Counted from the first letter of the stretch, positions 22,799-45,508 are shown. The stretch: DNA of 64,000 bases from an uncultured Gammaproteobacteria bacterium (GCA_964536515.1 CAZHXI010000005.1:2178-66177); one strand, 5' to 3'. Translations and numbers: made by a program. The notes: generated by a model not told the origin, from the letters alone.

Positions 22799-24283
22799 CT
22801 ACAATTCCCTCTCCAAATCCTTCATCTCGCGCTGCAGGATGGTCTCGCCCTCGTCGAGGTCGATCTTCAGCTGCGCCAGGATGCCCGCCTCCTCCTTGGT
22901 CAGCTCACGGCGGAGCCGGGCGTGCTCCAGCACCTTCAGCTGGTCGGCGACGTCGTGCCGCAGCTTGGCGAACGCCAGGTGCGTGCTGCGCTCTACCGAC
23001 CTAAGGTCGGTACGGAAGCGGCGGCGGAACTGGGCGAACTTGAACCAGCCGTACCAGACCACTGCCAGGCACAGCAGCAGCATGGCGACTGCGGGAATGA
23101 ACACCGCCATCCAGCTCACGGCCTGGCGGCTGACAACCTGAGCTGCGCTCAGCGGGGTGGGCGGAGGCGAAACGACGTCGAAGGCGTAGGAGTCGGCCAG
23201 CGAGTTGCCGGCGCGGTCGAAAGCCGAGGCACGGATACTGTGGCTCCCGGGCGTCAAGGTCGGCGTACGGTAGACTCCGGTGCCGTCGTCCCGCCAGATG
23301 ATCGGCTCGCTGCCGTCGATGAAGATGCGGTAGTAGTCTATGCCGGACATCGCATCGACCGCATCGAACTGGAAGGCCGCGCCGCCCTCCAGCCAAGCGG
23401 GGTGGTCCTCGACGCCCGCAATGATGTTCCGCTCCGGGCTCTTGGTATCGATGCGTACCCTACGGTGGCCGGCTGAGCCCCAGCCGTCCTTGGTCTGGAA
23501 GCGGGCGTGGAAGTACCAGGTGCCGTCTGCCACGTCGCGAAAAATGTAGCTGTCGAACAGGCCGTCCGAAGCTGTACCCGGAACGGTCGAGGGGCTCTGG
23601 TCTAAGACCACGCTCACCCCGGTAACGCCGTCCGGCAGCTTCCAGTTGAAGACCGGATTCCTGTCGTTGTACCACGAGTCCTCGTTGGGGTGGGTCGCCG
23701 ACGTAATGGCCGGAGCGGGGCCGCTCGGCGAAGCTGCCCGTGGCGCGGGATCCGTGGGTGGCGGGCCGTCGGAAACCACCAGAGAGGCGCTGGCCTGGCC
23801 GGTGAGAATGTTGGTGCCCTGCCCATCGTTCGCCAGCACCGATGCCTGCGAGAAGGCGAGGCGCGCCGTGCCAGCCGCCTTGGCGCGGAAGGTAACGGAG
23901 AGGACGCGCTTGGCCGTACCGCGGAACCCCGGGTTGAGGACTACGCCCTCGAACCGTACGTTGCCGTCTACATTGGAGTACGAAGGCTCCTGGACCCAGA
24001 AGTTGAACACCGATCCAGTCTTGTTGAGGCCGGTAACCTCTAGCTTATCCTTAGGGAACGTAACGACTCCCGAGGCAGCATTCATCGCCTGGTCGGCGCT
24101 GGTTACGTACACCCCTACGGTGAACGTGCTGCCTACGGCGTAGGTTCCAAGGGCGGGCGTAATGTACAGGCTGGCTGCCAGAGCTGGGGTCGCCCACAGC
24201 GCCGCCGTGCACGCCAAGAGCAGCTTCGCCAGCCAACGGCTGACGCGACTACCGACGGCTGGAGAACCGGTGACGGACGGCAT
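22799..24283 (-). CDS. cohesin-like domain surface protein, large paralog
   Basis: Signal peptide, cohesin-like beta-sandwich region (LYITPA..TFTVGVYV..VVTFPKDKLEV), HPNEDSWY/DVADGTWYFHARFQT modules, C-terminal TM helix and a cytoplasmic coiled-coil tail; paralog of 38944..40470. Confidence 0.65.
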   Translation of the reverse strand: MPSVTGSPAVGSRVSRWLAKLLLACTAALWATPALAASLYITPALGTYAVGSTFTVGVYVTSADQAMNAASGVVTFPKDKLEVTGLNKTGSVFNFWVQEPSYSNVDGNVRFEGVVLNPGFRGTAKRVLSVTFRAKAAGTARLAFSQASVLANDGQGTNILTGQASASLVVSDGPPPTDPAPRAASPSGPAPAITSATHPNEDSWYNDRNPVFNWKLPDGVTGVSVVLDQSPSTVPGTASDGLFDSYIFRDVADGTWYFHARFQTKDGWGSAGHRRVRIDTKSPERNIIAGVEDHPAWLEGGAAFQFDAVDAMSGIDYYRIFIDGSEPIIWRDDGTGVYRTPTLTPGSHSIRASAFDRAGNSLADSYAFDVVSPPPTPLSAAQVVSRQAVSWMAVFIPAVAMLLLCLAVVWYGWFKFAQFRRRFRTDLRSVERSTHLAFAKLRHDVADQLKVLEHARLRRELTKEEAGILAQLKIDLDEGETILQREMKDLEREL

Positions 24284-25178
24284 AGCTACCGAGTAATAGT
24301 AGCAGAACCGCCGCCCCCACGCCGTAGCCCAGCTTGCGGTGCGCCCCCGCGGGGTTGACCGTAGCCGAACGGACGTTCCCAGCCTGGTCTACCGCACGCA
24401 CGTGCAGCACCCGGCCGAGAGACTGGTCTTGCAGCGGGTACGGGCTGGTAGCAGAGGCCCACCGGGGCTGCGGTAGCAGGCGACCCCGCCAGCCACCCGG
24501 CTGCTCCCACACGTCGTAGTGGCTAATGCCCGATCGCTTATCGGTGGTGCTGAATACCAGGGTCCACCGGCCATCCGCAAGCTGCGAATTCTGCACCAGC
24601 GCAGGCTGGAATGGCTCGGGTGGGTCTCGGTCTGGCTTGCCCACCCCGAACACCGGCTGCTTCTCGGAACGGACGACTACCGACGTTCGGTCTAAAGACA
24701 GCTCCGCAGCCTGTCCGTCTGGGCCGTTGAGGTACACCCTGGTGCCGCTGGCGAAGCTGAGCGGCAGCTCGCCGCTCGCCCGGGGCGAGATGGTGAACGA
24801 GAATAGCTTGCCGCCCGTGCCCTGGAACCCGCCGGGCACAATGCCGGCGAACCGAACGGAGCGGCCGGCGTTCCGCACGCCGTCGCCTGCCTCCGCCGGA
24901 GGCGTCGGCCTCTCCAGCCACAGGCTGACCACCGAGCTGCCGTCGGCGGCGGCCACGACGGCGGCCACGTCCGAGCCGAGCTCGACCGAGCCATCCACCG
25001 CATTGACCGATTCATCCGGCGAGTCGAGCCTAACCTCGACCTCGAACGGCGCGTACAGGCTCTGCGTCAGCTCGGGAGCAGAGAAGTACAGACGGGCAGC
25101 TCGAGCGGCACTCGGCACCGCGAAGCACGCTGCGGGCAGGAGCAGCGCCAATGGAAGGATGATGGAACGGATGCGCAT
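24249..25178 (-). CDS. cohesin-like domain surface protein, small paralog with a C-terminal TM anchor
   Basis: Signal peptide, RLYFSAPEL..FEVEVRLDS cohesin-like N-terminus, C-terminal TM helix and a basic tail; paralog of 40474..41400. Confidence 0.6.
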   Translation of the reverse strand: MRIRSIILPLALLLPAACFAVPSAARAARLYFSAPELTQSLYAPFEVEVRLDSPDESVNAVDGSVELGSDVAAVVAAADGSSVVSLWLERPTPPAEAGDGVRNAGRSVRFAGIVPGGFQGTGGKLFSFTISPRASGELPLSFASGTRVYLNGPDGQAAELSLDRTSVVVRSEKQPVFGVGKPDRDPPEPFQPALVQNSQLADGRWTLVFSTTDKRSGISHYDVWEQPGGWRGRLLPQPRWASATSPYPLQDQSLGRVLHVRAVDQAGNVRSATVNPAGAHRKLGYGVGAAVLLLLLGSYAVRHRFSSRR

Positions 25179-25181
25179 AGG

Positions 25182-26246
25182 TCAGCCGGTCCAAGCGTAC
25201 GCCAGAATGCTGAAGTCCACGATGTCGATTCGTCCGTCCAGCTTCAGGTCCAGCGGGGCGGGCGGATTAGCCCGTCGGTACCAGTACGCCAGGATGCTGA
25301 AGTCCACCAGGTTCACCCGGCACTCGCCGGTGAAGTCGGCCCTGTTGGCGCAGACGTTGGTCCGACCCACGTTCCTGGTGCCCACCCTGAACCCGACCGA
25401 TTGGCCGTAGGGGCTGCTGCCCTCCCCGGCTTCGGCGCGAGCCTTGGCGCTGTGGTCGCCCACCTCCAGCGGCGCCGTATCTACCGACCGCTCGTACGCC
25501 CCGGCGAAGTCTGAGGTCGCCGTCGCCAGCAGCTCGACCTCGGAGTGAATGGCAATGGTAACCGCGGCGTTCGGCGCGCTCTGGCCGAACACCTTTATGG
25601 TCTCGCCGCGGCGGACCTCGTCACGGTCTAGGTCGATGGTTGAGGCAATGAAGATGCCCCCGACGGTGGTGATGGTGCCCTCCTCTACCTCCAGGGGAAA
25701 GGTCAGCAGGCTAGACCGCCGGCCGTCGGTATCCTCGCCGTAGAGCGAGAAGATGTAGCTGCCGCCCGCTAGCCCCACCAGCGAGAACTGGAAGCGGGCG
25801 TCGGGCCCGGCCACCGTGCTGCCCGCGGCCTGGCCGTCGCGCAGCACGGTTACCCTTCCGCCGGGGTACGATACTCCGGTGAAGGTAACGGTCGTGGGCA
25901 CGGGCAGCTCCGGCCGCGGCTGCTGCGGCCCGTCGACCGGTACCGGGCTACCCCCTCCCGAGCTGCCGCCGCCCGAGCTCCCCCCTCCGCCATCGTCGCC
26001 GCCGCCCGGGTCGTCTGGGTTGGTAACCTGCACCGTAATGTTCAACGGGTCTGCCAGCAGCAGGGCGGGCAGAGAGGCGAATGCCGCCACGGCTGCCCAC
26101 AGCAGCAGGGCGGGCAGCTTCGTAGAGCGTGCCACGGCTAGTCGCGCCGGCGCAGCTGCAGCTGGAAGCGCCGCCTGAACTGGGTCAGCCCCAGCAGCAC
26201 CAGCACCAGCCCCGCCAGCGGGATGACGGTTATCCGCCACGGCCAC
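25182..26246 (-). CDS. secreted dockerin-domain protein with a Gly/Ser linker
   Basis: C-terminus carries a duplicated Ca-binding segment DFTGECRVNLVDFSILAYWY / DLKLDGRIDIVDFSILAYAW (type-I dockerin pattern); the annotated start overlaps the upstream gene by ~109 bp, so the real start is probably a GTG/TTG near VARSTKLPALLLW. Confidence 0.65.
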   Translation of the reverse strand: MAVADNRHPAGGAGAGAAGADPVQAALPAAAAPARLAVARSTKLPALLLWAAVAAFASLPALLLADPLNITVQVTNPDDPGGGDDGGGGSSGGGSSGGGSPVPVDGPQQPRPELPVPTTVTFTGVSYPGGRVTVLRDGQAAGSTVAGPDARFQFSLVGLAGGSYIFSLYGEDTDGRRSSLLTFPLEVEEGTITTVGGIFIASTIDLDRDEVRRGETIKVFGQSAPNAAVTIAIHSEVELLATATSDFAGAYERSVDTAPLEVGDHSAKARAEAGEGSSPYGQSVGFRVGTRNVGRTNVCANRADFTGECRVNLVDFSILAYWYRRANPPAPLDLKLDGRIDIVDFSILAYAWTG

Positions 26247-27055
26247 GCCCAGATGCGAACCGTCGCCTGGTGCGTCTGCCCGTCGCCGTCGGTGGCCCTT
26301 AGGGTAGCCTTGAGCGGCCCCCAGTAGTAGCGGTCGCCCTCCACGAGGGCCTTCATGGTTCGGGATGTCTCGGGGAAGACGAACAGCCCGTCCAGGACGC
26401 CGGTTGCTACCGTCCGCCCGAACAGGTTCGTTACCGCAACCGTGCCCTTGGGCTGGTAGTGAACCGAGCCGGTATTCTCGAAGACGACGTTGAAGGCGAG
26501 CGGCCCGCGCTCCACGTAGCGGGGACCCGAGAACGAGCTGATACGCCCGCCGCGGGCAATATCGCCCGGCACCGAGACCATGAGCAGCGACCCGACGCGG
26601 GGCAGTATGCCCACGCCGGTGGTGCCGGTGGCAGCGCCAGAACCTTCGGAGGCATTGAAGAAGATAACGGCGAAGTGGCCACCGGGTGCGGCGTCCGCTG
26701 GCACGACGATGGTGTACGGCACCCTACGCTCCTCCTTCGGCTGCAGCGTAACGCTGGAGTCGGCTACGCTCACCCAGCCGGCCAGGCTACTCTTGCCGCC
26801 GGCGTTCTTCACGAAGGTAATGTTCGCCTCGCCCGTGGGGACAAAATCCTCGAAGGTCGGGGTAAGGGTGAGCGGCGTCTCTCCGTTATTGGTAATGATT
26901 ACGCTGTCGGTATACGAGGCGCCGGGCTGCAGCTCCAGCACGAACTTAACGGGCCGCAGGGTTAGGCTAACCCCAGCGGCGCTAGCCGGAGCCACGGCTA
27001 AAGACGCAGCCCCTGCAATTGCTAGGGTAACGGCGGTTAGCAGCGTTCGTTTCAT
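26138..27055 (-). CDS. cell-surface protein with a DUF916/DUF3324-like architecture (signal peptide, beta-rich ectodomain, C-terminal TM and RRRF tail)
   Basis: The topology and its position next to two proteins sharing a WxL-like C-terminal domain mirror Firmicutes WxL loci; sequence homology has not been verified. Confidence 0.4.
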   Translation of the reverse strand: MKRTLLTAVTLAIAGAASLAVAPASAAGVSLTLRPVKFVLELQPGASYTDSVIITNNGETPLTLTPTFEDFVPTGEANITFVKNAGGKSSLAGWVSVADSSVTLQPKEERRVPYTIVVPADAAPGGHFAVIFFNASEGSGAATGTTGVGILPRVGSLLMVSVPGDIARGGRISSFSGPRYVERGPLAFNVVFENTGSVHYQPKGTVAVTNLFGRTVATGVLDGLFVFPETSRTMKALVEGDRYYWGPLKATLRATDGDGQTHQATVRIWAWPWRITVIPLAGLVLVLLGLTQFRRRFQLQLRRRD

Positions 27056-27110
27056 AGGCTTAGCCCCAGCCTACCGAGGCAGCCTCGCTCGCACAAGGGC
27101 GTGGCGGCGG

Positions 27111-27779
27111 CTACGGGTTGGTGGTCACCGTATAGGTTACGGTGCCATCGTAGTTGCCGGTCTGCTGGGTCGTCGGTACGTCCAGCTTGTACCAAATGGG
27201 TAGGCTCGAGTTGCTTCCCTGGTAGACGCTGCAGTCGGCAATCTTCTTGCTAGCTGCCGAGCTGGTGGGAATGCCGGCGTACAGCGGCGATCCATCCACG
27301 CCCCACCAGGTAGCAGCCTGCAGGCAGGTTGTGGTTCCGGTAATGGGCACGCGGAAGGCGAGGCTGGTGGTGGCGGCGTAGGCCTCGGATCGCCCCGCAG
27401 ACGTAGTCGCAGCGGCGGGGACCCACTCGGTCATATCGGGAATATCAACGGCGGCGTTGGTGGTTAGGTCCATGGTGGCGTTGTCATCGGACCGCGACAG
27501 GGCGAAGTTGAAGCCCGTGCTGTTGTTCGTGGCAATGGTGCTGGTAGAGCTAGTCGCCACCGGGGTACCCGGCGTGAGGGCGGGGAAGGCAATGGTGGTT
27601 ACGGGCAGGGTGAGGGTAATGGCGGCCTGCACGGTTACGGTCAGGGTGGGCGTCTCGCTATCGGTAGCCGCCTGAGCTGCCGTGGTGAAGGGGTAGGCAA
27701 CCAGGGCGCAGCCTGCGGCGAGCAGCATCACGCTGGGAACCAGTTTCATGAACCTGCGAATGTCTTGCAGCTCTATCAT
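27111..27779 (-). CDS. small secreted WxL-like domain protein
   Basis: Signal peptide; the C-terminal ~190 aa are homologous to the C-terminus of the 1325-aa neighbour (WWGVDGSPLYAGIPT...IWYKLDVPTTQQTGNYDGTVTYTVTTNP). Confidence 0.5.
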   Translation of the reverse strand: MIELQDIRRFMKLVPSVMLLAAGCALVAYPFTTAAQAATDSETPTLTVTVQAAITLTLPVTTIAFPALTPGTPVATSSTSTIATNNSTGFNFALSRSDDNATMDLTTNAAVDIPDMTEWVPAAATTSAGRSEAYAATTSLAFRVPITGTTTCLQAATWWGVDGSPLYAGIPTSSAASKKIADCSVYQGSNSSLPIWYKLDVPTTQQTGNYDGTVTYTVTTNP

Positions 27780-27850
27780 AATTATTCTTTGGCGGTTAGC
27801 GATGAGACTATAGCACTTTTTCGACGGGCTGGTAATGCCTTATGCACACC

Positions 27851-30800
27851 CTAGGGGTTAATGCTTGCCGTCAGCGTGAGCTGGCCGTCGTAGCTTCCTG
27901 CTTGCTGGGTAATGGGCACAGCCAGGCGGAAGAAGATCTTAGCGTTCGCCGTTGCCCCGAACGACTGCACCGCCACCGCCTGGCTGGTGGTCGGCACGCC
28001 GGCGTAGAGCGGGGTGAGGTCGGGGCCCCACCAGGCTTCGCTGAAGAATGGGACATCCGTCGCCTCGCCCAGGCGGAAGGCGAGGCCGGTGCCGGTGTAG
28101 GCTACGGCGTTGCCCGCCGTGGTGGTAACGCCCGGCGCAATCCACTCGGCCTTGTCGGTGATATTCGTGGCGGGGTCCGAGGTTAAGTCTAGGGTCGCAT
28201 CGGCAGAGTTACGCTTCAGGTACAGGGTGAAGCCGGTGCCGTTGGTAGAGTCAACGGCCGCATTGAAGGCAGGCTCCACATCTCCCCCGCCGCCGGTAAC
28301 CGGGTCCATGGCCCAGGTGGTATCGTCGAGCGATAGGGTGATATCGGCGCTGTTCGGGTCATCTACCCAACGGTAGCTGACCATGAAGAAGTCGAAATCG
28401 CTGACGGTAGCCAGCGTGGTGAAGGTAGCAGCCGAGCTGCGCACGCGGAGCACGGTCGAGCTGGCGACGGGGTCGATGTAGTTCTCGGGCGTGGTGAACA
28501 GGTAGCCATTGGTAATCGCATCGGAGTAGGTGTAGGTGGTGGTAGCGGCGTTGGTGGTGGCGATGTTCGTCCAGCCCGCCGAAGCCGCGCCGTCGCTACC
28601 CGAGAAGTCGAGCAGCTGCGGCTGGGTCGTCTTGCCGGTGCCGCCGGAGCGCCAGTATGCAGAGTAGAACATGCCCGCCGGGCTGGTGCCGGTCACCATG
28701 GTGTGGGTGAAAGGTATGACGACCGAGGTAATGTGCTCAGCCGTGGCGTCGGCATCCCCAGCCAGGGCGTAGTAGTCGCTAGCCATAGCCGCCGACTCCA
28801 GGGCGCTGCTCACCGACCATAGCTGGGCCGTTCCGGCCGTATCGATGTTGCGGGTATACTTGCAGTCATTGGCGCTGTTCGTGCCGTAGTCTATACGGCA
28901 GCCAGCGTCGACCGTATTGACCGTGCCCACCACCAGGTAGATCCAATCTATACGCAGCTCCTGGGTGCCGTTGGCCGAACCCAGCATGCCTATCCTAACC
29001 TCGCCGTTGCTGACGTAGTTGGCCAGGTTCACGTTGCTCTTGCTGTAGTAGCCGGTGGTGTCCGTCCCGGCCGCGGCGCAGGCACGGGCGGTACTGATAG
29101 ACTCCCAACCCGGGGTGGTAAAGTTGTAGACCCGTAGGGTGTAGTTAATGCCCGTGGCGCTGCAGCCAGTCTCGGCCACCACCAGCAGCGCGTTGGCGCC
29201 GTCGTAGGTCCGCACGTTGCGGAATGGCAAATAGAACTCGGTGGTAACGCTGGCGGTGCCCGAGGCTCTGGCGTAGGTATTATCCGACCCGCTCTGCCCG
29301 CTGCTGCCGGTTACCAGAGTCTGCGGATTCTGGGCGTGGACGTACGCCGACTCGCCCTGGCTCTGCCCGGTGATGACCGATAGCCCCTGGGGCATGTAGA
29401 CCGGGTCTACCACCATTTGGATGCTGGCGTAGTTGAACATGTGGGTGGTAGCGGTAGTCGAGGTACTGTAGGCACGGATGCGCACCGTGCCGTTGGTGGA
29501 CGAGACGAAGTTCGAGAGCGAGGTGCTGGCGATACGGTTGGACGTTCCCGAGACAGCCCCCAGGGGTACGTTCCAGTAGCCTTCGTAGATATGGTAGGTG
29601 TAGGTACGCCTGGTAGCGTCGCCGTAGGCCTGGCGGCTCTTGAAGTTGGCGTACTTGTTCAGGCTGCGCCAGCCGCCGTTGCAATCTTGGTCTGCTGCGT
29701 CGTCCACCGCCGTGGTGGTTGCCCAGTCGCATATCTGGTACCAGCGCATTAGGCTGGCGCTGCCGCTGCTGGCGTACAGGGTAATTACCATCTTGTTGGC
29801 GTTGTTCACCTTTACGTAGTCGAAGTCTACCTGCTGGTTCAGCCCGCTGCCGCTGGTGGTAACGGTCCAGTTGAAGCCGTCGTTCGCCTCGGCGTTCAGC
29901 AGGGCACGCCAAGACCCGTGGTTGCCGCTGGAGGCAGCGGCCAACCGGGGGTTCTCGGTGCCGACGCGCAGGCGGCCATCGGTGGGAGGGAAGTTGTACT
30001 GGATGCTACGGCGGGGCGCATCCTCCTCTATCCAACTAATCGAAACCATGGCCCAGTCGAACGTACGGGTGAAGCTCTGGCCCAACAGGGAGCTAGCAGC
30101 TGTACGGAACCGTACCTCGACCGTATCGTCGTACGTGTTAATGTAGTGCTGGCTGCTGGTGGTAAAGTAGCCGTGCGTAATGGGGTCGGTGTAGCCGTAG
30201 GTAGTGGTGGAGTTGGCGATGGTGCCGAAGTTGGTGTAGCCGCCGCTGGCGGTGGGATTGAGGCCCCACCAGTCCTTGAACTGCGGCTGAAGCGAGGCGG
30301 TATTACTGCCGGGCGTTGCCCGCACGCTGTAGGCCAAGCTGACCATGGTCGCATCACTCGGAACGCGTACCGGAAAGGTTGCGTGGGTCGCCACGTTGGC
30401 GTCATTGGCCACGGCGTCGCAGTCGTTGTCGCAGGTGTAGAAGTCTTGCGTAACGCCGGAGTTGGTATCCAGCTGGCTGCCCACCATCCAGCCCGTGGTG
30501 CTAGCTAATGCGCTATCCATATCGTTCATGCGGTCGCACTGGGTAGCCACTCCGGTGCCGTACGAGACCTCGCACCGCGAGGGGTCCGACACCGTGCTGC
30601 CGACTATCATGTAGATGTAGTCGAGCCGTACCTCCTGGGTGCTATTGCCCGAGCCGTACCAGCCCACCCGCACCTCGCCGTCGCGGATGTACTTCCACAG
30701 CGAGCTGGTGGTGAACCCGAACTGCCCCGCCGCATCGGTAGTGCTGCAGGTAAATCCGCTGACCGATAGGTCCTCCCAGGAGCTGGAATAAAAATTCCAC

Positions 30801-31828
30801 ACCTTGGGCTTATGGCTAATTGTGCCATTCGAGCTACAGCCGAATTCGGCCACCACGGCAATGGCGTTCGCCCCGGTGTACGTCCGCACGTTCTTGAACC
30901 GCACGTAGAAGTCGGCGATGCTGCCCGCCGTTCCAGAAACCTTAAGGTAGCCGTTGTCGCTGCCGGTTGTGCCGCCGGTACCCGAGAGCAGGGTGGGCGG
31001 GCTCTGGGCGAGCACGTAGCTGCTCTCGCCGGTCTGGGTGCCACTAATGACCACCGCCTCGGCCGGCATGTAGATTGGGTCGACCACCAGGTCTACCGCC
31101 AGCCAGTTGATGATGTGGGTCGTTGCCACGCCGGAGGGGGCGTACGCCCGAACCATTACCCGGCCGGTGCTAGAAACGAAGTTCTGGAGCGGGGTTGACT
31201 GGGGCTCATGCGTAGTTGGCGTGGTCGTAAGATTATCGTTATTCCAGTAGCCATCGTAGATGTGCCAGGTGTAGTAGCGGAGCGCTGCCTCAGCAATGCC
31301 CTGCCGGCCCTTGGCGCCGGAGTCAACCTTGTGCAGGGTCCGCCACCCCCCGCCCGTGCAGTCGCTATCGTTACCCGCATCTACCTTGTTGGGGTTCACC
31401 CAGTCGCATATCTGGTAGTAACGTTGCAAGCTAGCGCTGCCGCTGCTGGCGTACAGGCTGACCACCATCTTGTTCGCGTTGTGAAGCTCGACGTTGTCGA
31501 GGTACAGAATCTGGTTCATGCCGCCCGCCGCGGTGCTGCTGACCGACCAGCCCCAGCCGTCCGGGCTCAGCGTACCCCGCCACGAGCCGGTGTTCCCCGA
31601 GGTTCCGACGGTAGTTATGGCTAGGTTCTGGCCTACATTCAGCACCCCGCCGGTCGCATTGTAGCGGCCATTTGCCCTAGCCTCGGGCGGGCCGAACTTT
31701 CCCTCCTGGGCCAGCTTGGCCAGGGGCGGAACCAGCTTAACCAGCGCCACCTCGGCTGCGCCGCTCAGCTGCGCCAGCAGCAAGACGACGAAGGCAATCG
31801 AGGCGAGGCTACGCGAACGGAAAAGCAT
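27851..31828 (-). CDS. giant secreted surface protein (1325 aa) with an internal ~460-aa tandem module duplication and a WxL-like C-terminal domain
   Basis: Signal peptide; duplicated module (NANKMVVSLYASSGSASLQRYYQICDW... / NANKMVITLYASSGSASLMRWYQICDW...); C-terminus ...WWGPDLTPLYAGVPT...ITQQAGSYDGQLTLTASINP. Confidence 0.6.
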   Translation of the reverse strand: MLFRSRSLASIAFVVLLLAQLSGAAEVALVKLVPPLAKLAQEGKFGPPEARANGRYNATGGVLNVGQNLAITTVGTSGNTGSWRGTLSPDGWGWSVSSTAAGGMNQILYLDNVELHNANKMVVSLYASSGSASLQRYYQICDWVNPNKVDAGNDSDCTGGGWRTLHKVDSGAKGRQGIAEAALRYYTWHIYDGYWNNDNLTTTPTTHEPQSTPLQNFVSSTGRVMVRAYAPSGVATTHIINWLAVDLVVDPIYMPAEAVVISGTQTGESSYVLAQSPPTLLSGTGGTTGSDNGYLKVSGTAGSIADFYVRFKNVRTYTGANAIAVVAEFGCSSNGTISHKPKVWNFYSSSWEDLSVSGFTCSTTDAAGQFGFTTSSLWKYIRDGEVRVGWYGSGNSTQEVRLDYIYMIVGSTVSDPSRCEVSYGTGVATQCDRMNDMDSALASTTGWMVGSQLDTNSGVTQDFYTCDNDCDAVANDANVATHATFPVRVPSDATMVSLAYSVRATPGSNTASLQPQFKDWWGLNPTASGGYTNFGTIANSTTTYGYTDPITHGYFTTSSQHYINTYDDTVEVRFRTAASSLLGQSFTRTFDWAMVSISWIEEDAPRRSIQYNFPPTDGRLRVGTENPRLAAASSGNHGSWRALLNAEANDGFNWTVTTSGSGLNQQVDFDYVKVNNANKMVITLYASSGSASLMRWYQICDWATTTAVDDAADQDCNGGWRSLNKYANFKSRQAYGDATRRTYTYHIYEGYWNVPLGAVSGTSNRIASTSLSNFVSSTNGTVRIRAYSTSTTATTHMFNYASIQMVVDPVYMPQGLSVITGQSQGESAYVHAQNPQTLVTGSSGQSGSDNTYARASGTASVTTEFYLPFRNVRTYDGANALLVVAETGCSATGINYTLRVYNFTTPGWESISTARACAAAGTDTTGYYSKSNVNLANYVSNGEVRIGMLGSANGTQELRIDWIYLVVGTVNTVDAGCRIDYGTNSANDCKYTRNIDTAGTAQLWSVSSALESAAMASDYYALAGDADATAEHITSVVIPFTHTMVTGTSPAGMFYSAYWRSGGTGKTTQPQLLDFSGSDGAASAGWTNIATTNAATTTYTYSDAITNGYLFTTPENYIDPVASSTVLRVRSSAATFTTLATVSDFDFFMVSYRWVDDPNSADITLSLDDTTWAMDPVTGGGGDVEPAFNAAVDSTNGTGFTLYLKRNSADATLDLTSDPATNITDKAEWIAPGVTTTAGNAVAYTGTGLAFRLGEATDVPFFSEAWWGPDLTPLYAGVPTTSQAVAVQSFGATANAKIFFRLAVPITQQAGSYDGQLTLTASINP

Positions 31829-31829: not shown

Positions 31830-33584
31830 CTATTCGGCGATTAGTATTGGCTCCTCGGGCGGCAGCAGCTCTATCGGCTGCTCGGCTACGGGCTCCTCGG
31901 GCGGCGCCGGCAGAACGTCGGCTTCTGCAGCCTCAGAAATCGGAGCTGTCGCCGTAGCGGCGACAGATGCCGGGCCTCGAATTTCTTCCAGGAAGACGGC
32001 GTGGTCCTTAGCTGCCACGGTTTCTGCTGCCGAGCCGTCGCCGTTCAGCAGCTGCAGGCTAGCGCCATCCCACCGCACCAGAAGCCCATCGGGCAGGCCT
32101 AGGTCGGTGGGCACCCCGGGCTCGATGGTCTGGCTAGCGTAGCTGCCGCCGCTCACCTGGTAGGTAGATATGGTTCCGCCGCCAGCTGTAACCCATGCCG
32201 CTACCCCACCGTGGAGAACGCTAGCCGCCACCGGGTCCAGCTCGGGCTCCTCCGAGACCAGGGTCCACGTCCCCTCGCCGGCAGCCTGGTAGACCCACAG
32301 CTGCTGCCGCTGCCGTGACTCGCTGAATACGCGGACCAGATTCACGTCGCCGTCGGCCAGCAGCTGCAGCACGGTGTCACGGGTAAAGTCTGGCTGCTCC
32401 TGAACATTGGCCGCATCGGCGCTGTAGGTAACGGCCAGGTACAGGCTGTCCAGCAGCACGGTGGGCTGCTCGGCGACGGTGGGCAGGGAGCGGAGCGCCA
32501 CCTGGACCGTGGCGAGCTCCTCCCAAGATGCGAGCGGCAGCTCCACGGCTAGCCCACGCCAAGATTGGCTGGTTACCTTGGCCACGGTGGTCCACGCTTC
32601 GCCGTCTAGAGTGTAGGCAATCTCCAGGAACGCCGGCTCGGTATCCTGGGGCAGCTGGGGCGTTGGGATTGGCGCGGACGGCCCGGGGTCGGGGGTAAGC
32701 TCGTTGGGTTTAGACGTCGGCGGCTCGTCCTTGGCCGTTGGCTCGGGAACTGGCTGCTCGGGCGCTACGGCATCGGTCGGAGCGACATCAGTCGGCGGCG
32801 CCTCCTTCAGCTCCACTGCAGGCGCCGGCTCAGCAGCGGGATCGGGCGCTAACTCTGGCGGGGCAAGCTCTTGCGCTAGCGCCGCGCGAATGAACGGCAG
32901 GCGAGCTGACTCGGGTAGCTGGGGTTCGGGAACCGGTTCAACGACTGGCGCGGGATCAGCTACAGGCTCCGGCGGCAGAGATTCCAGCAGCACCTCCTCC
33001 GCCGCCGGGGCATCCAGCAACGCCTCAACCTGCTGCTCGGGCGTGGCTACCGGATCTACGTTGACGGTTCCTCCGCTCGGCGCCGGGGTAACGACCGGAA
33101 GCTGCGGCAGCTTGCCACCCGGCAGCACTGCCCAAGACAGGTTGAGCGTAACCTTCTTGGGCGCCGCATCCAGCGGTACGTCTCCCTTGAATCCTCCGCA
33201 GTAGATTTGCGCCATTACCCCATCCAGGGCTGCCGAATTCTTAGACGTGAACAGCTCGGGGTCCGCCTCTGGGGCAAGGTCTGGCTCGCCCTCGGCCAGC
33301 TGGGGGTTTGCCCAGCCGCCCAGGCAGGAGGTGGCGTACAGGGTGGCAATATTGGCACGGCCCACGCCCCGCAGCAGGCCCGCCACGAGCACGAGCACCA
33401 GCAGCGCCGCGACGCCCGAGCGGACCCGGTGGCGAGCCAGCAGACGCACGAACGCAGAGGCGCTCACCTCTAGGTGCCACGAGCGCTCGCGTAGCCGAAC
33501 CACGCGTTGCCGGGGCCGCGATAGGATGTCGTGCACCAGGCGGGGCCGCACGCCACGACGTCGCAGGATCTTGCTCCAATCCAT
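31830..33584 (-). CDS. membrane-anchored Pro/Glu-rich hypothetical protein
   Basis: Arg-rich cytoplasmic N-terminus, one TM helix, long PE-rich linker and a globular C-terminus; 1-bp gap to the downstream gene. Confidence 0.5.
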   Translation of the reverse strand: MDWSKILRRRGVRPRLVHDILSRPRQRVVRLRERSWHLEVSASAFVRLLARHRVRSGVAALLVLVLVAGLLRGVGRANIATLYATSCLGGWANPQLAEGEPDLAPEADPELFTSKNSAALDGVMAQIYCGGFKGDVPLDAAPKKVTLNLSWAVLPGGKLPQLPVVTPAPSGGTVNVDPVATPEQQVEALLDAPAAEEVLLESLPPEPVADPAPVVEPVPEPQLPESARLPFIRAALAQELAPPELAPDPAAEPAPAVELKEAPPTDVAPTDAVAPEQPVPEPTAKDEPPTSKPNELTPDPGPSAPIPTPQLPQDTEPAFLEIAYTLDGEAWTTVAKVTSQSWRGLAVELPLASWEELATVQVALRSLPTVAEQPTVLLDSLYLAVTYSADAANVQEQPDFTRDTVLQLLADGDVNLVRVFSESRQRQQLWVYQAAGEGTWTLVSEEPELDPVAASVLHGGVAAWVTAGGGTISTYQVSGGSYASQTIEPGVPTDLGLPDGLLVRWDGASLQLLNGDGSAAETVAAKDHAVFLEEIRGPASVAATATAPISEAAEADVLPAPPEEPVAEQPIELLPPEEPILIAE

Positions 33585-33711: not shown

Positions 33712-36273
33712 TCAGTTGTAGCTCACTACCGTTCCTAGGACAGGGTAGCTATCGGAAGCGCTGAACGGGCCTCGCTGCTGGGTGTACCCAGCCGGCACGT
33801 AGCGGTAAACGGCTCCTCCATCGGCCCAGTTGGGCTCGTAGCTAGAATTGCCCATGGCGTAGCCGGTCATACCGGGAACCGTCGCCTGCACGGTGCGCAG
33901 CGTAGGCATGGGAACGTTACGGATACCCACGGTGTCGGCTCGCAGGCTGAAAGTTCGGCTACCGTAGCTGCCACCGAACGTGGCGGGGATGGTAGCGTTT
34001 GCCTGCCAGCCGCCGTTGATGCTGGTGCTGGAGCTGAAGGAAACCGTCCCATTGGTGGTAGTAGCCGACAGCCGAACGCCACCGGGCGCGAACGCAATAG
34101 CGGTACCGGCATCATCGTACAGCCTGAAGTCTCGCACCTGGTCGTAGGTAGACGAGCTAGACGTTGACATCAGTAGGCCCGTAGACGCCAGGTTCACCAA
34201 CAGCGACTGCAGCGTCAGCGGAACCTGGCCATAGTTGCGAACCTCGAACCGAGCAATTTCATCCGTAACACCCTGGACGTGGTTAATGAGCGGCAGGGAC
34301 GCAGCGGTAGGCACAGCATCATGAACTAGGAACCATGCCGAGGGGGAGCCGTACTGACCGATGTTCACATACTGGGACGGCAGCACGCCGGTAGGCCCAC
34401 GCACCTCGATATCCTGTACGCTATTCGACTTTACCCGAACCATTACCTGGGTAGCATCGGCCCCGGTTCCGCTACCGAATAGGTCGACAGCTACGTCCAG
34501 GTGGTAGGGTGCCCAGGCGGGCATGGCTACCGCCTGCGGGAACACGAACACGGCATCGGCTGTAGTCGTGCCAGCATTGCTGGGCGTTGCGGTGGCTAGC
34601 AGCACACCGTCGTGGTAAAGAGAAACCGAGGCGACGTTGGCGTAGCCAGGCAGGTTAGCTGAACCGCCCACGCTACCCTGCAGCTGCAGGGTCAGGCGAT
34701 GCAGCGATAGGCTGCCCTGGTCGGTGTAAGGAGTAAGCTCGAGACGGTGAATCTGACGATTCTCCGATCCAGCCAAAATTACGCTCGATACTGTATCGGG
34801 GAATACGTGCTGGCCGCTGATGCTGAGCGAACCCTGCTGTCCGCCGATAACCCAGTAGCCGAAGGGGCTAGAGACCGGCAGGAAGATCGCGGGGTAGATT
34901 GCCGCACCGCTGGTGCCACCGGTAATGGTAAGGTCGGAAGGCTCAACCAGCGACGCGCGGAGCCAACGTCCTGCTCCCGACGCCACATCGGCGTACACGT
35001 TGAAGGTTACGTTGGTACCCGGCAGGTTTATGTACGGCTGCGGCAGGTTGAAGGTAACGACCCCATTTACCGCCGCGGTGGCTGTGGCGAATGGGAACTC
35101 GGTCTGGCCGGGAACCAGCCTGAAGTTGACCAAATCGCCGTCCTGCACCGTCCCCGATAGGCGTACTATCACCTGCCTTACCACCATGGACTCCAGGCTA
35201 TTCGTGTCTGTCAGGCTGAAGCGGAACAGCCTGCTGCCCAGGCTGCCCACATTCAGATTAGCTGCCGTGGTAGTGCCGGGCTGATTGAAGTATCCACCGA
35301 CGCTGGCCCCGTCAACCCAGGCGGACGCAATCGAGCTAGAGCCATCAACCCAGCTGAACAGGTTGCCCCGCAGCGAGAAACGGGCTCCCATTGAGCTGCC
35401 GCCGGTCTGCGTAATGTCTGCGGCTGCTGCCACGGCGAGCCGTACGCCGTAGTCCCCCAGCTGCACCGGGGCATTAGCCGGTAGGTCGGCCTTAATGGTA
35501 ACCACTTTAGTGGTGAGGGGTGCGACCACGATCGGGTTAGCGGAGAGATCAATGGTCGCCCGTAGGTTAGCGCCGAATACGCCGCGGCTGCCGTGGCGAG
35601 TTGCGCCGTCCCATACCGTCGCCCCATCGAACACCGTGCTGGTGGGCAAAGTGCTGGTACTGGTAGTAGAGAAACGAGCGTACTCCTGCGTCAGCGTGAG
35701 GCTGGTAACTTGCACGGGCAGCCCCGAGAGAGACTGGATGCGAATGGCCAGCACCGGGTTCTGCTGGGTGCCGTCGAGCAACGTGGCTGCCGGCGGGGTG
35801 GCCGGGTCTACCACCAAACGTATCGGACCAGCTACCGGCACTGGGTCTTCTTCGCCATCATCGACCGGCTCTACCGGACGAATCGGGCCCAGCACGTTGC
35901 TCCAGCTAGCCTGGGTAACCGTACCCTGGGGCTCCAGGCCATCTAGGCTGCTGCGGCCCTCGCGAGCCGAAACCTGCTTGGCCAGCATCTGGAGCGTCAC
36001 GGGATCGGCGATACGCCAAACCCTGTCGCCGCGGCGCAGGTAGAGCGTCTTGTCGTTGGTCAGAGAGACGATCGCATCGCCGGTCGGCACCTTTGCCACG
36101 GCAGCCGCGGTGGAAACGCCCGCGACCCTTCCCTCGGCCAGCACCCCCCGATTCATTAGGACCAATAAGCTGCCCGAAACCCAAGCCAGGGCGCCGAACA
36201 GGACGATGGTCCGTACCGACATGCGCATACGCATTTGTTTTGATTTACGAATTAAAAAATATGCGTCCGCCAA
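33712..36273 (-). CDS. large secreted/anchored hypothetical surface protein (853 aa)
   Basis: N-terminal signal anchor and a beta-rich, T/S/G-rich body; the true start is likely at one of the MRMRMSV Mets. Confidence 0.5.
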   Translation of the reverse strand: MADAYFLIRKSKQMRMRMSVRTIVLFGALAWVSGSLLVLMNRGVLAEGRVAGVSTAAAVAKVPTGDAIVSLTNDKTLYLRRGDRVWRIADPVTLQMLAKQVSAREGRSSLDGLEPQGTVTQASWSNVLGPIRPVEPVDDGEEDPVPVAGPIRLVVDPATPPAATLLDGTQQNPVLAIRIQSLSGLPVQVTSLTLTQEYARFSTTSTSTLPTSTVFDGATVWDGATRHGSRGVFGANLRATIDLSANPIVVAPLTTKVVTIKADLPANAPVQLGDYGVRLAVAAAADITQTGGSSMGARFSLRGNLFSWVDGSSSIASAWVDGASVGGYFNQPGTTTAANLNVGSLGSRLFRFSLTDTNSLESMVVRQVIVRLSGTVQDGDLVNFRLVPGQTEFPFATATAAVNGVVTFNLPQPYINLPGTNVTFNVYADVASGAGRWLRASLVEPSDLTITGGTSGAAIYPAIFLPVSSPFGYWVIGGQQGSLSISGQHVFPDTVSSVILAGSENRQIHRLELTPYTDQGSLSLHRLTLQLQGSVGGSANLPGYANVASVSLYHDGVLLATATPSNAGTTTADAVFVFPQAVAMPAWAPYHLDVAVDLFGSGTGADATQVMVRVKSNSVQDIEVRGPTGVLPSQYVNIGQYGSPSAWFLVHDAVPTAASLPLINHVQGVTDEIARFEVRNYGQVPLTLQSLLVNLASTGLLMSTSSSSTYDQVRDFRLYDDAGTAIAFAPGGVRLSATTTNGTVSFSSSTSINGGWQANATIPATFGGSYGSRTFSLRADTVGIRNVPMPTLRTVQATVPGMTGYAMGNSSYEPNWADGGAVYRYVPAGYTQQRGPFSASDSYPVLGTVVSYN

Positions 36274-37080: not shown

Positions 37081-37155
37081 GGCCCCATCGTCTAACGGTT
37101 AGGACACGGCCCTTTCAAGGCCGGAACGGGAGTTCGATTCTCCCTGGGGCTACCA
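37081..37155 (+). tRNA. tRNA-Glu (anticodon TTC), CCA encoded
   Basis: Manual cloverleaf: acceptor GGCCCCA/TGGGGCT, anticodon loop CTTTCAA, T-loop TTCGATT. Confidence 0.85.
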
Positions 37156-38943: not shown

Positions 38944-40470
38944 CTAGATTCGGCGGCGGCCGCGGGTCGGAGCGTCTGCGGGCTGCCGGCGCAGTCGCCT
39001 CAGGCGCAGGTACCTGCGTAGGTTCCACACCGCGAAGTAGGCAGCTGCGAGCAGCAGCGCCACCAGGTACGGCAGCGGCGAGCGGAGCCAGGCCGCCAAC
39101 CCTACCCTGCCTACCTGCAGCTGCGCCGCATCCGAAGCCGGCCCGCTAATGGCCACCGTTACCTTAGCCCACACCTGGTAGGATCCGGCGCGGCGGATCC
39201 GCTTGCTGCGGTAGCTGAACTTCCCCTCGCCATCGGCGAGCACATCGGTGCTCACCAGTTCGCCGCTGGGAGCACGCAGGGCTACCGTTACCGTGCTGTT
39301 CGGGTAGACCGTGGTGCCGGCTACCACGATACGGCCACGCACGACCTGCGTGGAAATCTTCGGTGCCACCGTGGGCAGCACCAGCAGCGTCTCCTCGCGG
39401 TCGGATCGATTGCCCGCGTTATCGAACGCCGTAACCGTAACCACGTGCTGGCCCGGCGTAAGCCCGGCGACGGCCACCGGCTGCTTAGCCAGCTCCGCCG
39501 GAACGTGCTGGGGCGCCTGCCCGTCTACCTGCACCTCGTAGTACTGCACGCCGGACGTAGCATCATCGGCGCTGAGCTGCAGCCCCGGGTAGCCCTCGGC
39601 TGTGGTGCCCACGGAGACCGAGACGTTCTCCGGCGCGGTGGCGTCGATGCGGATTGGGAACGTTACAACCCCGGTCCACCCCCGGCTCGTCTGGGCGCGC
39701 ACGTGGAAGTACCAAATGCCGTCCGCCACGTCGTCGTAGCTACGCTCGGAAACCTCCGCCGATAGGCTTCGCGTCGTGCCGCCGCTGGGCGACTCATCTA
39801 GGGCGACCTGCAGCGCCCTAGACCCCGCCGGGGCTGTCCAGCCCACCACCACATCCCGCGCGGTGTACCAGGTACCCTGGTTCGGGTGGGTGGGCGACCA
39901 TACGGTTAGGCCGCCGGCGGAAACCGTCGGCTCCTCCTCCGGCGGCTCGGCTCGCTCGGGCTGCTCCTCGGCGGCGGTAACGGTAACCGTTACCCCGCCC
40001 GCGCCGGTGAGGATATCGGTGCCGAGCCCGTCGTTCTCGCGCACCGCTGCGCCGGAAATTCCAATCGTCGCCGTGCCTGCACGTCGGGCGCGGAAGGTAA
40101 CACTGGCCAGCTCGCCGCTTCCGGTGAAGCCGGGGGTTGGAATGCCGCCATTCAAGCTAACCGTGCCGGAGCCAGATGAAATTGATGGCTCTATAATCCA
40201 GAGCCTGAAGATAGAGCCGCCGCGGCTGGCCGAAACAGCCTCCAGTATATCGCGCGGGTAGGTAATGGTAGCCTCTGCGTTATTGATCGCCTTGCCCTGC
40301 GTATTCACCGATAGCCGAACCGTGAAGGTCGCGCCCTCGGCCACGGTAACGGCAGACGAACGGAGCGAGAGCGTAGCGGCCTCAGCCCGACGGGCGCCCA
40401 CTGCGGGCAGCAGCAGCGCTGCCGCGACAGCAATCGCAACGGTGCGGCGGACAACGGGCAGCTGCGCCAT
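38944..40470 (-). CDS. cohesin-like domain surface protein, large paralog (locus 2)
   Basis: Signal peptide; ATLSLRSS..ATFTVRLSVNT..ATITYPRDILEAV cohesin-like region; SPTHPNQGTWY and DVADGIWYFHVRAQT modules; C-terminal TM. Confidence 0.65.
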   Translation of the reverse strand: MAQLPVVRRTVAIAVAAALLLPAVGARRAEAATLSLRSSAVTVAEGATFTVRLSVNTQGKAINNAEATITYPRDILEAVSASRGGSIFRLWIIEPSISSGSGTVSLNGGIPTPGFTGSGELASVTFRARRAGTATIGISGAAVRENDGLGTDILTGAGGVTVTVTAAEEQPERAEPPEEEPTVSAGGLTVWSPTHPNQGTWYTARDVVVGWTAPAGSRALQVALDESPSGGTTRSLSAEVSERSYDDVADGIWYFHVRAQTSRGWTGVVTFPIRIDATAPENVSVSVGTTAEGYPGLQLSADDATSGVQYYEVQVDGQAPQHVPAELAKQPVAVAGLTPGQHVVTVTAFDNAGNRSDREETLLVLPTVAPKISTQVVRGRIVVAGTTVYPNSTVTVALRAPSGELVSTDVLADGEGKFSYRSKRIRRAGSYQVWAKVTVAISGPASDAAQLQVGRVGLAAWLRSPLPYLVALLLAAAYFAVWNLRRYLRLRRLRRQPADAPTRGRRRI

Positions 40471-40473
40471 TCT

Positions 40474-41400
40474 CTAGAGCCGCTTCCGGCGACGGAGCGC
40501 CGCCAACGCAACGAGCAGCGCCGCTAGGGCCACGGCTGCAGCCGCAGCGACCGCCGCTACCAGCCACCTGCTGCCGCCCCCGGCGATCGGGAGCACGTAG
40601 CTGCTGGCGTTGCCCGCTCGATCGTAAGCCGTAATGGTCACGGGCGCCGTACGGGCCTGGTCACGCAGCACGTACTCGCTGCCGGTACGTACCGCGGGAT
40701 TCGTACCCTCGGCTACCTCCAGGTGGTCCAACCCAGAGCCGCTATCCTCCACCTCGATCGCCAGGAAGAGCATGCCTCCGTGCACGCTGGGGTCGCTGCC
40801 GACGTTCACCGCCAAGAACCTGGGTGGCTCGTTGTCGGACGCGACCAGGTCACGCAGCGCATCCCTGGGCGCCCCGGTAGGCTCGCCCACCCGCAGCGTC
40901 AGCGGCTGGCCAGAGGCGGGCGTAGCGGCGCCGGTGCCATCGTTGGCGTAGGCGGTAACCTTCGCCGGGGTAAACGTAATGGTGCCGGGCTCCGCCACGG
41001 CGATGGCAATACGGAACAGCAGCGCGTCGTCTGCGCTAACCCCGCCGGGCATACCGCCGGTGAACGAAATGGTGCCGCTGCGCTCGTCCCACGATGGCTT
41101 CCTTGGCCACAGCGACAGGTCGGACCCCGCGACGCTGAGGTCGCGTAGCTCGAAGGTACCCGGAGCAGCCTCCAGCTTAACGGCGCCCTCGACCACGTTG
41201 TACGATCCGCCCTCGGTGCCCAGCCGAACATCCAGGATGGTGGTGTCGCCGGCAGAGACCGAAGCCGTTCCAGCCCGCAGGTAGACCGTGGCTGCCGAAG
41301 CCGAGCCCGCCCAAGCCAACGCCACCGCGGCGAAGGCGACTGCGGGCAATGCGCTCCACATGATACCAATCGAATGCCTACGAATGTGTTCCATGTACAT
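40474..41400 (-). CDS. cohesin-like domain surface protein, small paralog (locus 2)
   Basis: Signal peptide; ATVYLRAGTASV..TILDVRLGTE cohesin-like N-terminus; C-terminal TM and RRRKRL tail. Confidence 0.6.
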   Translation of the reverse strand: MYMEHIRRHSIGIMWSALPAVAFAAVALAWAGSASAATVYLRAGTASVSAGDTTILDVRLGTEGGSYNVVEGAVKLEAAPGTFELRDLSVAGSDLSLWPRKPSWDERSGTISFTGGMPGGVSADDALLFRIAIAVAEPGTITFTPAKVTAYANDGTGAATPASGQPLTLRVGEPTGAPRDALRDLVASDNEPPRFLAVNVGSDPSVHGGMLFLAIEVEDSGSGLDHLEVAEGTNPAVRTGSEYVLRDQARTAPVTITAYDRAGNASSYVLPIAGGGSRWLVAAVAAAAAVALAALLVALAALRRRKRL

Positions 41401-41408
41401 TCAGCTTA

Positions 41409-43802
<2,394 letters not shown>

Positions 43803-43839
43803 AGCTGGTTCCGTCGCCGCACGGTGGCCGGCCGACGAA

Positions 43840-44025
43840 TTAGACCTGCCGCTTACGGTTCGCCGACGTATCCGACGCCGTCTGGCTGTCGTCCCTGAAG
43901 GCCCCGGTCAGGTGGCGCACCGCCTCGACGATGCTCTTGGCCAGCTCGGGGATCTTCTTGGCGCCGAACAGCAGCACCAGGACGACGGCGATAATGATTA
44001 GCTCCTTCGTGCCGAGTCCGAACAT
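43840..44025 (-). CDS. tatA: twin-arginine translocase subunit TatA/E
   Basis: MFGLGTKELIIIAVVLVLLFGAKKIPELAKSI is the canonical TatA TM helix plus amphipathic helix. Confidence 0.85.
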   Translation of the reverse strand: MFGLGTKELIIIAVVLVLLFGAKKIPELAKSIVEAVRHLTGAFRDDSQTASDTSANRKRQV

Positions 44026-44066
44026 AGAGTTTTGAGTTTTAGTTTGCCGTTAGTCTCGTTGGGTAC

Positions 44067-44210: not shown

Positions 44211-44215
44211 AGCAG

Positions 44216-44947: not shown

Positions 44948-44962
44948 AGGCTAGCGGCTAGC

Positions 44963-45499: not shown

Positions 45500-45508
45500 A
45501 GCGGTAGC

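Follow-up and report, generated by a model that had tools for sequence, protein, structure and literature searches.

Are WxL-type surface complexes confined to the Firmicutes, or do three adjacent genes from an uncultured bacterium encode one as well? Gene clusters for proteins with WxL (Trp-x-Leu) domains are regarded as peculiar to gut Firmicutes, and accounts of how they work still derive from predictions. The question is raised by a 64,000-nucleotide stretch of DNA from an uncultured Gammaproteobacteria bacterium (GCA_964536515.1, CAZHXI010000005.1:2178-66177; hereafter the window), in which a secreted giant of 1325 amino acids (aa), a small protein of 222 aa and a transmembrane (TM) protein of 305 aa are encoded side by side. 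The minimal WxL cluster described in the literature consists of a large protein with the C-terminal domain, a small protein made up of the domain only and a DUF916-type TM protein (PMC9772566, PMC10599100), and Hassan et al. (2023) define a WxL gene cluster as at least one WxLIP and at least two WxL proteins within four genes. The trio in the window has this architecture, and we conclude that it is probably a divergent WxL-type cell-surface complex.

The three open reading frames (ORFs) lie head to tail on the minus strand, in the transcription order giant, small protein, 305-aa protein, with gaps of 71 nt between the first two and 55 nt between the last two; the G+C content of the region is 62-64%. 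The ORF coordinates in the first-pass annotation, which had been made from the sequence without database searches, are exact for all three genes on this strand, and the peptide strings it cited occur in the translations. Its central observation, that the small protein is a stand-alone copy of the C-terminus of the giant, also holds, with an extent of about 175 aa. A BLASTP alignment over 172 aa pairs residues 52-222 of the small protein with giant residues 1161-1325 (41% identity, E 4e-29), and residues 1151-1325 of the giant match a hidden Markov model (HMM) of the domain family described below with an E-value of 1.5e-46. The sharing of the domain is real and far beyond chance. The giant ends at the last residue of the shared domain (…YDGQLTLTASINP, followed by the stop). 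We further note that the giant contains two tandem repeats of about 555 aa, which are 42% identical over 563 aa (BLASTP, E 4e-124); this duplication was missing from the first-pass account. The passenger region of the giant has no match in Pfam or among the sequences of the PDB.

The partner that ties the trio most directly to known WxL clusters is the 305-aa protein. It had been described as carrying a signal peptide, a beta-rich ectodomain, a C-terminal TM helix and a basic tail, and the hydrophobic segments fit that description: one at aa 4-22 is signal-like, and another at aa 272-290 is a single C-terminal TM segment, followed by the basic tail RRRFQLQLRRRD. The search with PF06030 (WxLIP_PGBD, formerly DUF916), one of the profiles to which the first-pass annotation had pointed, gives a match at aa 38-128 with 27.8 bits against a gathering cutoff of 27.3. 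In a search with an HMM built from 11 members of the WxLIP-like family, annotated DUF916 proteins are matched along the two beta domains as well as the TM helix, with E-values of 1.4e-33 for Clavibacter and 4e-29 for Plantactinospora. The same HMM matches the DUF916 protein of a Paenibacillus urinalis plasmid, where the cluster is annotated with DUF916, WxL and a large protein (4.6e-18), and the equivalent protein of Paenibacillus lautus pAZOPL1 (2.5e-10). A tblastn search with the 305-aa protein leads to a Paenibacillus lautus plasmid cluster that also encodes a large protein and a PF13731-positive small WxL protein, and the database relatives of the 305-aa protein include Streptomyces and Plantactinospora sequences with the NCBI name 'WxL protein peptidoglycan domain-containing protein'. 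In its second half, the 305-aa protein aligns with the second domain of DUF916 proteins, with HMM positions reaching up to 259-299. Because of the PF06030 score above the gathering cutoff and the family-HMM matches to DUF916 proteins, we accept the 305-aa protein, on the grounds of homology, as a member of the WxLIP/DUF916 family with a divergent second domain.

The shared domain is not peculiar to this locus. When its profile HMM was searched exhaustively against 1.84 billion representatives (clusters at 50% identity), 517 clusters were recovered at E ≤ 0.001, of which 108 reached E ≤ 1e-30. The end of the domain is the last residue of the protein in 145 of 149 full matches and lies one residue earlier in the remaining four. 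The carriers are either proteins of about 200-260 aa, with a signal peptide and the domain, or large proteins of up to 3773 aa, a size split that is the small/large dichotomy of WxL proteins. The passengers of the large carriers vary and include beta-propellers, fn3, Laminin_G and Gly-rich domains. Named sources comprise Parcubacteria, Moraniibacteriota, Saccharibacteria and other metagenome-assembled genomes (MAGs) of Patescibacteria. Judged by these matches, the shared domain is an unannotated family that is widespread in ultra-small bacteria of the Patescibacteria, or candidate phyla radiation (CPR), and it is marked by motifs of its own, an invariant WWG and D-x-x-x-W. A scan of GTDB species genomes with a 10-sequence alignment of the domain gave 11 related loci. 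Ten of these extend further downstream, and in every one of them, as in the window, a set of two or three domain proteins is encoded immediately before one or two members of the 305-aa family. The linkage of the domain to a WxLIP-like gene in ten out of ten loci indicates that the module is conserved.

Whether the domain itself is related to WxL can be asked of its two most conserved regions. Canonical WxL sequences were taken from annotated plasmids (Terribacillus, B. anthracis pXO1, Pontibacillus, E. faecalis and Paenibacillus), since a homologue search seeded with the Paenibacillus WxL protein yielded seven close relatives. The Terribacillus protein shows the textbook motifs, …KDLRGTQAGWRLDVS… and, at its end, …YKSTLTWNLVQAP. 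In the window family (n=149), motif 1 consists of a strand, a turn, G (145/149), an aromatic residue (Y in 59, F in 45 and W in 41), any residue and an aliphatic one, to be compared with 'GTxAGWxL' of WxL. Motif 2 runs Y-x-G-x-[IVL]-T-[YF]-T-[AV]-x-x-N-P to the end of the protein; its first Tyr is present in 149/149 sequences, and the two later variable positions are mostly Y (100) or F (27) and A (112) or V (22). The spacing from this Tyr to the terminal Pro is identical to that in the 'YxxxLTWxLxxxP-end' motif of the Terribacillus sequence. At the two motif positions the small window protein has F-N-F and Y-T-V and the giant has F-T-L and L-T-A, so that no literal Trp-x-Leu motif occurs in the window proteins. 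Although the literal WxL motif is missing from these two proteins, its positions are conserved across the family as aromatic-x-aliphatic.

Profile-profile comparison adds to this correspondence. With hhalign, the family aligned locally to one Firmicute WxL profile in the C-terminal hairpin (E 0.0017, score 27.3) and to a second at motif 1 (E 0.02, score 20.7), compared with scores of 11.5 and 13.2 (E 0.3-0.5) for reversed-sequence controls. The extended and global alignments to WxL were colinear, with both motifs in register. The case for likening the shared domain to WxL thus comes from the positions of the motifs, the terminal location, the gene context and weak profile-profile scores, and common ancestry of the two is probable rather than demonstrated.

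Several observations weigh against a WxL assignment. Formal membership of the shared domain in PF13731 (WxL), which the first-pass annotation would lead one to expect, fails: neither the 222-aa nor the 1325-aa protein matches at E ≤ 1, nor does any of 116 family members at E ≤ 0.01, even with lenient thresholds, whereas the positive control, the small WxL protein of Paenibacillus, scores 29.1 bits. The hhalign probabilities are low (2-16%), and their support holds relative to the reversed controls only. The two motifs lie about 125 residues apart in the window family, a distance that differs from canonical WxL, in which the small and large domains differ in length and topology, with about 106 and about 68 residues between the motifs (PMC9772566); the small and large copies in the window are instead one domain, alignable end to end at the identity given above. 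The invariant WWG motif is absent from the WxL sequences examined. NCBIfam has nothing for the shared domain or for any of the three trio proteins, and PDB searches turned up no WxL structure, those with the domain profile, the 305-aa protein and the giant passenger region being empty or spurious at the sequence level. As for the partner, the canonical WxLIPs of Enterococcus, Pontibacillus and pXO1 reach a mere 12-20 bits with the family HMM, and the 305-aa protein has no match to PF11797 (DUF3324, WxLIP_HBD), the second domain it had been proposed to contain. The canonical NQIDKxxxYFDLK sequence is absent from it as well; the equivalent place reads RPVKFVLELQPG, which is similar solely in the 'hydrophobic-acidic-L…PG' part. 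The parallel to WxL loci is thus borne out in the gene architecture and in the PF06030 partner, and not in PF13731, PF11797 or literal Trp-x-Leu motifs.

In Clavibacter (L020 6095-6721, 208 aa) and Plantactinospora (L005 6354-7817, 487 aa), proteins encoded next to DUF916 genes have a C-terminal domain that is missed by Pfam. This actinobacterial domain matches the Firmicute WxL profiles with 83-90% probability (hhalign, E 1e-5 to 2e-6) and the window family weakly (hhalign, E 0.004), with three coinciding motif positions. Such profile matches suggest that WxL domains are annotated too sparsely in Actinomycetota. A Candidatus Humimicrobiaceae MAG (L006 7651-9989) has a third variant of the C-terminal domain, shared by a 530-aa Gly-rich protein and a 153-aa ORF directly upstream of a WxLIP homologue. 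This variant, which ends in …GSYxDxIxYSCTxN, was not detected by the window-family HMM; hhalign gives an E-value of 0.008 for it, compared with 0.17 for the reversed control.

The predicted structure of the shared domain is consistent with these comparisons. An AlphaFold2 (AF2) model based on a 70-sequence alignment has a predicted local distance difference test score (pLDDT) of 95.1 and a predicted template modelling score of 0.87, and supersedes a run with 10 sequences that reached a pLDDT of 62.7. The model is a pilin-like beta-sandwich and shows the incomplete immunoglobulin (Ig) fold typical of pilins. A hairpin in the model (E36-46, turn NNSTG, E52-58) has motif 1 on its second strand, while motif 2 occupies the last strand of the domain (E176-182); both placements agree with the published description of WxL. 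The predicted fold also agrees with a published AF2 prediction, in which a strand of the WxLIP fills the gap in the WxL sandwich (PMC10599100). For the model, Foldseek returned nothing below E 1e-3; GH123 N-terminal domains appear in its list together with TasA and the Fim/Cfa/Pap pilins. The identities are 8-20%, and the list is therefore indicative of a fold class, not of a family assignment. The best solved matches are nearly all subunits that assemble by donor-strand exchange, namely TLP-1b, Csu, CFA/I, CupE, Fim, Pap and TasA, with the cannulae protein CanX.

For a WxL-type complex, we infer an anchoring mechanism from homology, architecture and fold. All three proteins would be exported via Sec signal peptides. 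The WxLIP/DUF916 homologue would be held in the membrane by its C-terminal helix, with its two Ig-like domains reaching into the wall zone. By analogy with the Firmicute WxL clusters, the shared domain would serve as a non-covalent anchoring module that docks on the WxLIP-like protein, probably via beta-strand complementation of the incomplete Ig-like sandwich, and/or on peptidoglycan. In such a complex the small protein would be a core or adaptor subunit, and the repeats of the giant would be displayed outward as its binding or adhesive part. The protein-protein contacts within the trio, the binding to peptidoglycan and the adhesive role are all expected from this analogy.

A pilin-like fold also raises the possibility of polymerisation by donor-strand exchange, and the trio could be read as a pilus that monoderm or ultra-small bacteria build without an usher. 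Polymerisation of the small protein would proceed via a donor strand at its N-terminus, the giant, with a single acceptor pilin domain at its C-terminus, would take the tip position of FimH and PapG, and the membrane-anchored WxLIP-like protein would donate the last strand as the base. The nearest solved structures noted above favour such a fibre, among them TLP-1b, an environmental fibril of unknown origin that is assembled by donor-strand exchange (PMC11494351). The pairing of an adhesin that carries a C-terminal pilin domain with a pilin-only subunit mirrors the tips of chaperone-usher systems (Csu, CFA/I, Fim, Pap, CupE) and recalls TasA and TLP-1, and loci have two or three paralogous small subunits. 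In the small proteins, the signal-peptide site is immediately followed by a conserved, alternating TLTVTV-like strand; an equivalent N-terminal strand is present in many large members, however, and it is therefore not an extension specific to the small subunit. A donor strand limited to the small proteins was accordingly not upheld. A promoter-like site with an extended -10 element (TG) lies just upstream of the small gene, at 27807-27835 (minus strand) in the 71-nt gap, and another is found at 36326-36298, upstream of the 853-aa gene, but promoter-like sites in the region occur at the chance rate (3 found, 2.8 expected), and the counts of the promoter/terminator scan are at chance level. Weak DUF4402 matches in a few family members also point towards a fibre, but were taken as local or fold-level similarity. 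Against a fibre, the cluster was found to encode no chaperone, usher, SipW-type peptidase or sortase, the PapD-like and usher families are unmatched in the eight operon proteins, there is no sequence similarity to the known donor-strand-exchange subunits, and a DUF916-type membrane partner stands in the place of the usher. We consider such a fibre unlikely.

The same reasoning can be carried beyond this locus. WxL-type clusters overall, the patescibacterial variant among them, may represent a hitherto unrecognised, usher- and sortase-independent assembly system of monoderm bacteria based on donor-strand complementation, with the 'WxL' domain as a pilin-type incomplete Ig fold, the small protein as a polymerising or adaptor subunit, the large protein as a tip adhesin and the DUF916 protein as the membrane base. 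We offer this generalisation as a speculation that is quite unlikely to hold.

A further possibility is that the C-terminal domain acts as a lineage-specific sorting or secretion tag, following a logic like that of the C-terminal domains of the type IX secretion system or of PEP-CTERM/LPXTG signals. The WxLIP-like protein would read the tag and hand the cargo to the surface, and the small proteins would be decoys or adaptor cargo. A tag would account for a domain that always stands at the very C-terminus with a conserved terminal N-P, for the very diverse passengers in proteins of up to 3773 aa, and for the strict linkage to a membrane-protein gene. Yet a sorting tag of about 175 aa would be a large one, the family abounds in stand-alone copies, which are its most conserved members, and a linked protease or transpeptidase gene is absent. 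The membrane partner is, moreover, homologous to DUF916 proteins, which have been proposed as structural anchors (PMC10599100). A sorting role is thus very improbable in our estimate. Most improbable of all is that the resemblance to WxL is convergent and that the trio serves polysaccharide capture through an unrelated Ig-like carbohydrate- or wall-binding module akin to the GH123 N-terminal beta-sandwich: there are weak matches to PF22680, the GH123 N-terminal domain (19.9 bits here, and matches in 7/116 family members), a GH3 gene lies elsewhere in the window and Lactobacillus csc clusters were originally proposed to act in carbohydrate utilisation (PMC1534035), but the PF22680 match is below threshold, spans the last ~27 residues only and, like that to DUF4402, was taken as local or fold-level similarity, the TM-scores are 0.3 or lower, the operon is without a glycoside hydrolase, the partner is truly homologous to DUF916 proteins and the positions of the motifs are those of WxL.

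The trio belongs to eight same-strand genes running from 36273 to 22799 with short gaps, and all eight products have N-terminal hydrophobic segments (Table 1). The two genes upstream of the giant, for the 584-aa and 853-aa proteins, have no counterparts in related loci. The genes downstream are conserved, and their relatives are found in the Candidatus Humimicrobiaceae locus described above (L006), in a Saccharibacteria MAG (L013) and in a second Saccharibacteria locus (L011).

Table 1. Features of the trio and of the surrounding same-strand genes (positions in the window).
Feature	Coordinates	Strand	Content and basis
853-aa beta-rich secreted or anchored protein	33712..36273	-	First gene of the same-strand run; lineage-specific
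584-aa membrane-anchored Pro-rich protein	31830..33584	-	Directly upstream of the giant, 1-nt gap; lineage-specific
1325-aa secreted giant ('large' partner)	27851..31828	-	Signal peptide, two tandem ~555-aa repeats, C-terminal WxL-like domain; hydrophobic segment at residues 7-25
Giant repeat 1 (aa ~51-600)	30029..31678	-	BLASTP against repeat 2
Giant repeat 2 (aa ~606-1155)	28364..30013	-	BLASTP against repeat 1
Giant C-terminal WxL-like ('WWG') domain (aa ~1151-1325)	27854..28378	-	Family HMM; BLASTP against small protein
222-aa small partner	27111..27779	-	Signal peptide (…AAQA, then ATDS…) and shared domain, nothing else
305-aa WxLIP/DUF916-type protein	26138..27055	-	Signal peptide, two beta-rich domains, C-terminal TM helix, basic tail
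317-aa secreted protein	25182..26135	-	Big_6 Ig domain and C-terminal duplicated dockerin-like segment; just downstream of the WxLIP-like gene, conserved
309-aa protein	24249..25178	-	Cohesin-like N-terminal module and C-terminal TM anchor (TM helix aa 283-301); homology to L013, L006
494-aa cohesin-like protein	22799..24283	-	Big_13, TM helix, coiled C-terminal tail; sub-threshold Cohesin; homologues in L013, L006

The 317-aa protein scores 27.9 bits with Big_6, and its orthologues in L006, L011 and L013 share 38-49% identity with it along the whole length. The window copy has no match to Dockerin_1 (PF00404), whereas orthologues score 31.6 and 25.6 bits against a cutoff of 22.9, those of L013 and L011 passing the threshold. 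The 309-aa protein, which has no Pfam cohesin match, has homologues at L013 10201-11085 and in the N-terminal part of an 887-aa protein of L006. The 494-aa protein reaches 17.7 bits with Cohesin (PF00963), below the cutoff of 24.1, and has homologues in L013 (full-length, E 2e-74) and L006 (E 4e-80). In L013 the dockerin gene and two cohesin-like genes all follow the WxLIP-like gene; in L006 all three follow it as well, with the two cohesin-like proteins fused; and in L011 the orthologue of the 317-aa protein is seen before the contig ends. The cohesin-dockerin pairing thus recurs as a module in other lineages and is no peculiarity of this genome. The first-pass annotation had considered both the cohesin-dockerin embedding and the high-GC setting unusual; the former is answered by these loci, and since DUF916 proteins are already annotated in high-GC Actinomycetota, a high GC content is not unusual in itself. 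We suggest that the dockerin protein and the two membrane-anchored cohesin-like proteins may make up a second pair of anchors that accompanies the trio. Compared with known cohesin-dockerin assemblies, the orthologues of the 317-aa protein are recognised as dockerins, the 494-aa protein and its relatives are cohesin-like at a sub-threshold level, and both the 309-aa and the 494-aa proteins are membrane-anchored, but there are no attached enzymes and no multi-cohesin scaffoldin, and the window copies stay below the Pfam thresholds.

A second run of surface-protein genes lies at 38944-48977 on the minus strand. It encodes a 508-aa cohesin-like protein (24.0 bits, cutoff 24.1), a 308-aa protein and a 797-aa protein with MG2 and Dockerin_1 (32.3 bits) domains, and also holds TatC, a 178-aa protein, a 944-aa Kelch-repeat protein and a 207-aa protein. 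Genes of the WxL-like or WxLIP-like kind are absent from this second run.

The rest of the window contains housekeeping genes for a class II aminoacyl-tRNA synthetase, valyl-tRNA synthetase, TsaD, a Mur ligase, glutamine synthetase and P-type ATPases. The stretch is therefore taken to be chromosomal and the organism to make peptidoglycan, the Mur ligase gene being an indicator of peptidoglycan synthesis only. Judged solely by the distribution of the relatives, the lineage may be patescibacterial or a neighbouring one. The Rfam matches in the window are four tRNA genes (11079-11150, 37081-37152, 56588-56660 and 59050-59121), with no ribosomal RNA or other RNA family among them. The valyl-tRNA synthetase (1046 aa, 50113-53253, plus strand) contains a complete histidine phosphatase domain (His_Phos_1, E 1.6e-40, aa 445-607), which sits between the match to the catalytic core and the anticodon-binding domain.

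Comparison with the WxL/Csc clusters of Enterococcus, Lactiplantibacillus, Listeria and Bacillus shows what the window system shares with them. The three-gene logic, the extreme C-terminal position of the domain, the domain-only small protein and the large protein with a variable passenger are alike. So is the partner, with its signal peptide, two Ig-like domains, C-terminal TM helix and detectable homology, and both motif positions and the terminal Pro of the window family are in register with WxL. There are also differences. The window domain fails PF13731, with Trp and Leu mostly replaced (Y/F/W-x-L/V/I in motif 1, Y/F-T-A/V in motif 2), and the family adds the invariant WWG and D-x-x-x-W and has one domain type rather than two topologies. 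None of the operon proteins has an LPxTG motif, and a dockerin/cohesin set is linked. The hosts of the family are Patescibacteria and related uncultured lineages, not gut Firmicutes. The actinobacterial DUF916 loci, such as those of Clavibacter (pCCh) and Plantactinospora, which are annotated under the NCBI name given above, hold the closest named relatives of the 305-aa protein and have neighbours with the Pfam-missed C-terminal domain; these partner domains are weakly similar to that of the window, but the passengers differ and WWG is absent there. In the literature, we found no paper that links WxL/DUF916 with CPR bacteria, or WxL with donor-strand exchange.

The canonical WxL/DUF916 clusters of Firmicute plasmids have a context of their own. 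On Terribacillus pT1, B. anthracis pXO1 and E. faecalis pBE57_1, they lie within or beside conjugative-transfer genes, including those for VirD4-like, TrbL and CpaF/VirB11 proteins and a lytic transglycosylase, and 115 out of 201 plasmids matching the Terribacillus WxL protein are typed as conjugative. This proximity to transfer genes, together with the share of conjugative plasmids, suggests a role for plasmid-borne WxL clusters as mating adhesins.

The reading of the trio as a WxL-type complex would mean that this type of anchoring system extends well beyond the Firmicutes, since a DUF916-type partner travels with a much more divergent, unannotated domain in hundreds of protein clusters of Patescibacteria/CPR and their kin. 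Many 'hypothetical' giant surface proteins of cell-attached organisms would thereby gain a name and a testable role. The confident pilin-like model ties the WxL idea to donor-strand complementation, and the related loci show that a dockerin/cohesin anchoring pair is repeatedly linked to the trio. If the domain does act in anchoring, it would allow the surface adhesins of uncultured episymbionts to be recognised purely by their sequence. If it is instead part of a donor-strand system, such clusters may be a source of some of the uncharacterised, TLP-1-like environmental fibrils seen by cryo-electron microscopy, and may provide ultra-small episymbiotic bacteria with fibres for attachment to their hosts.

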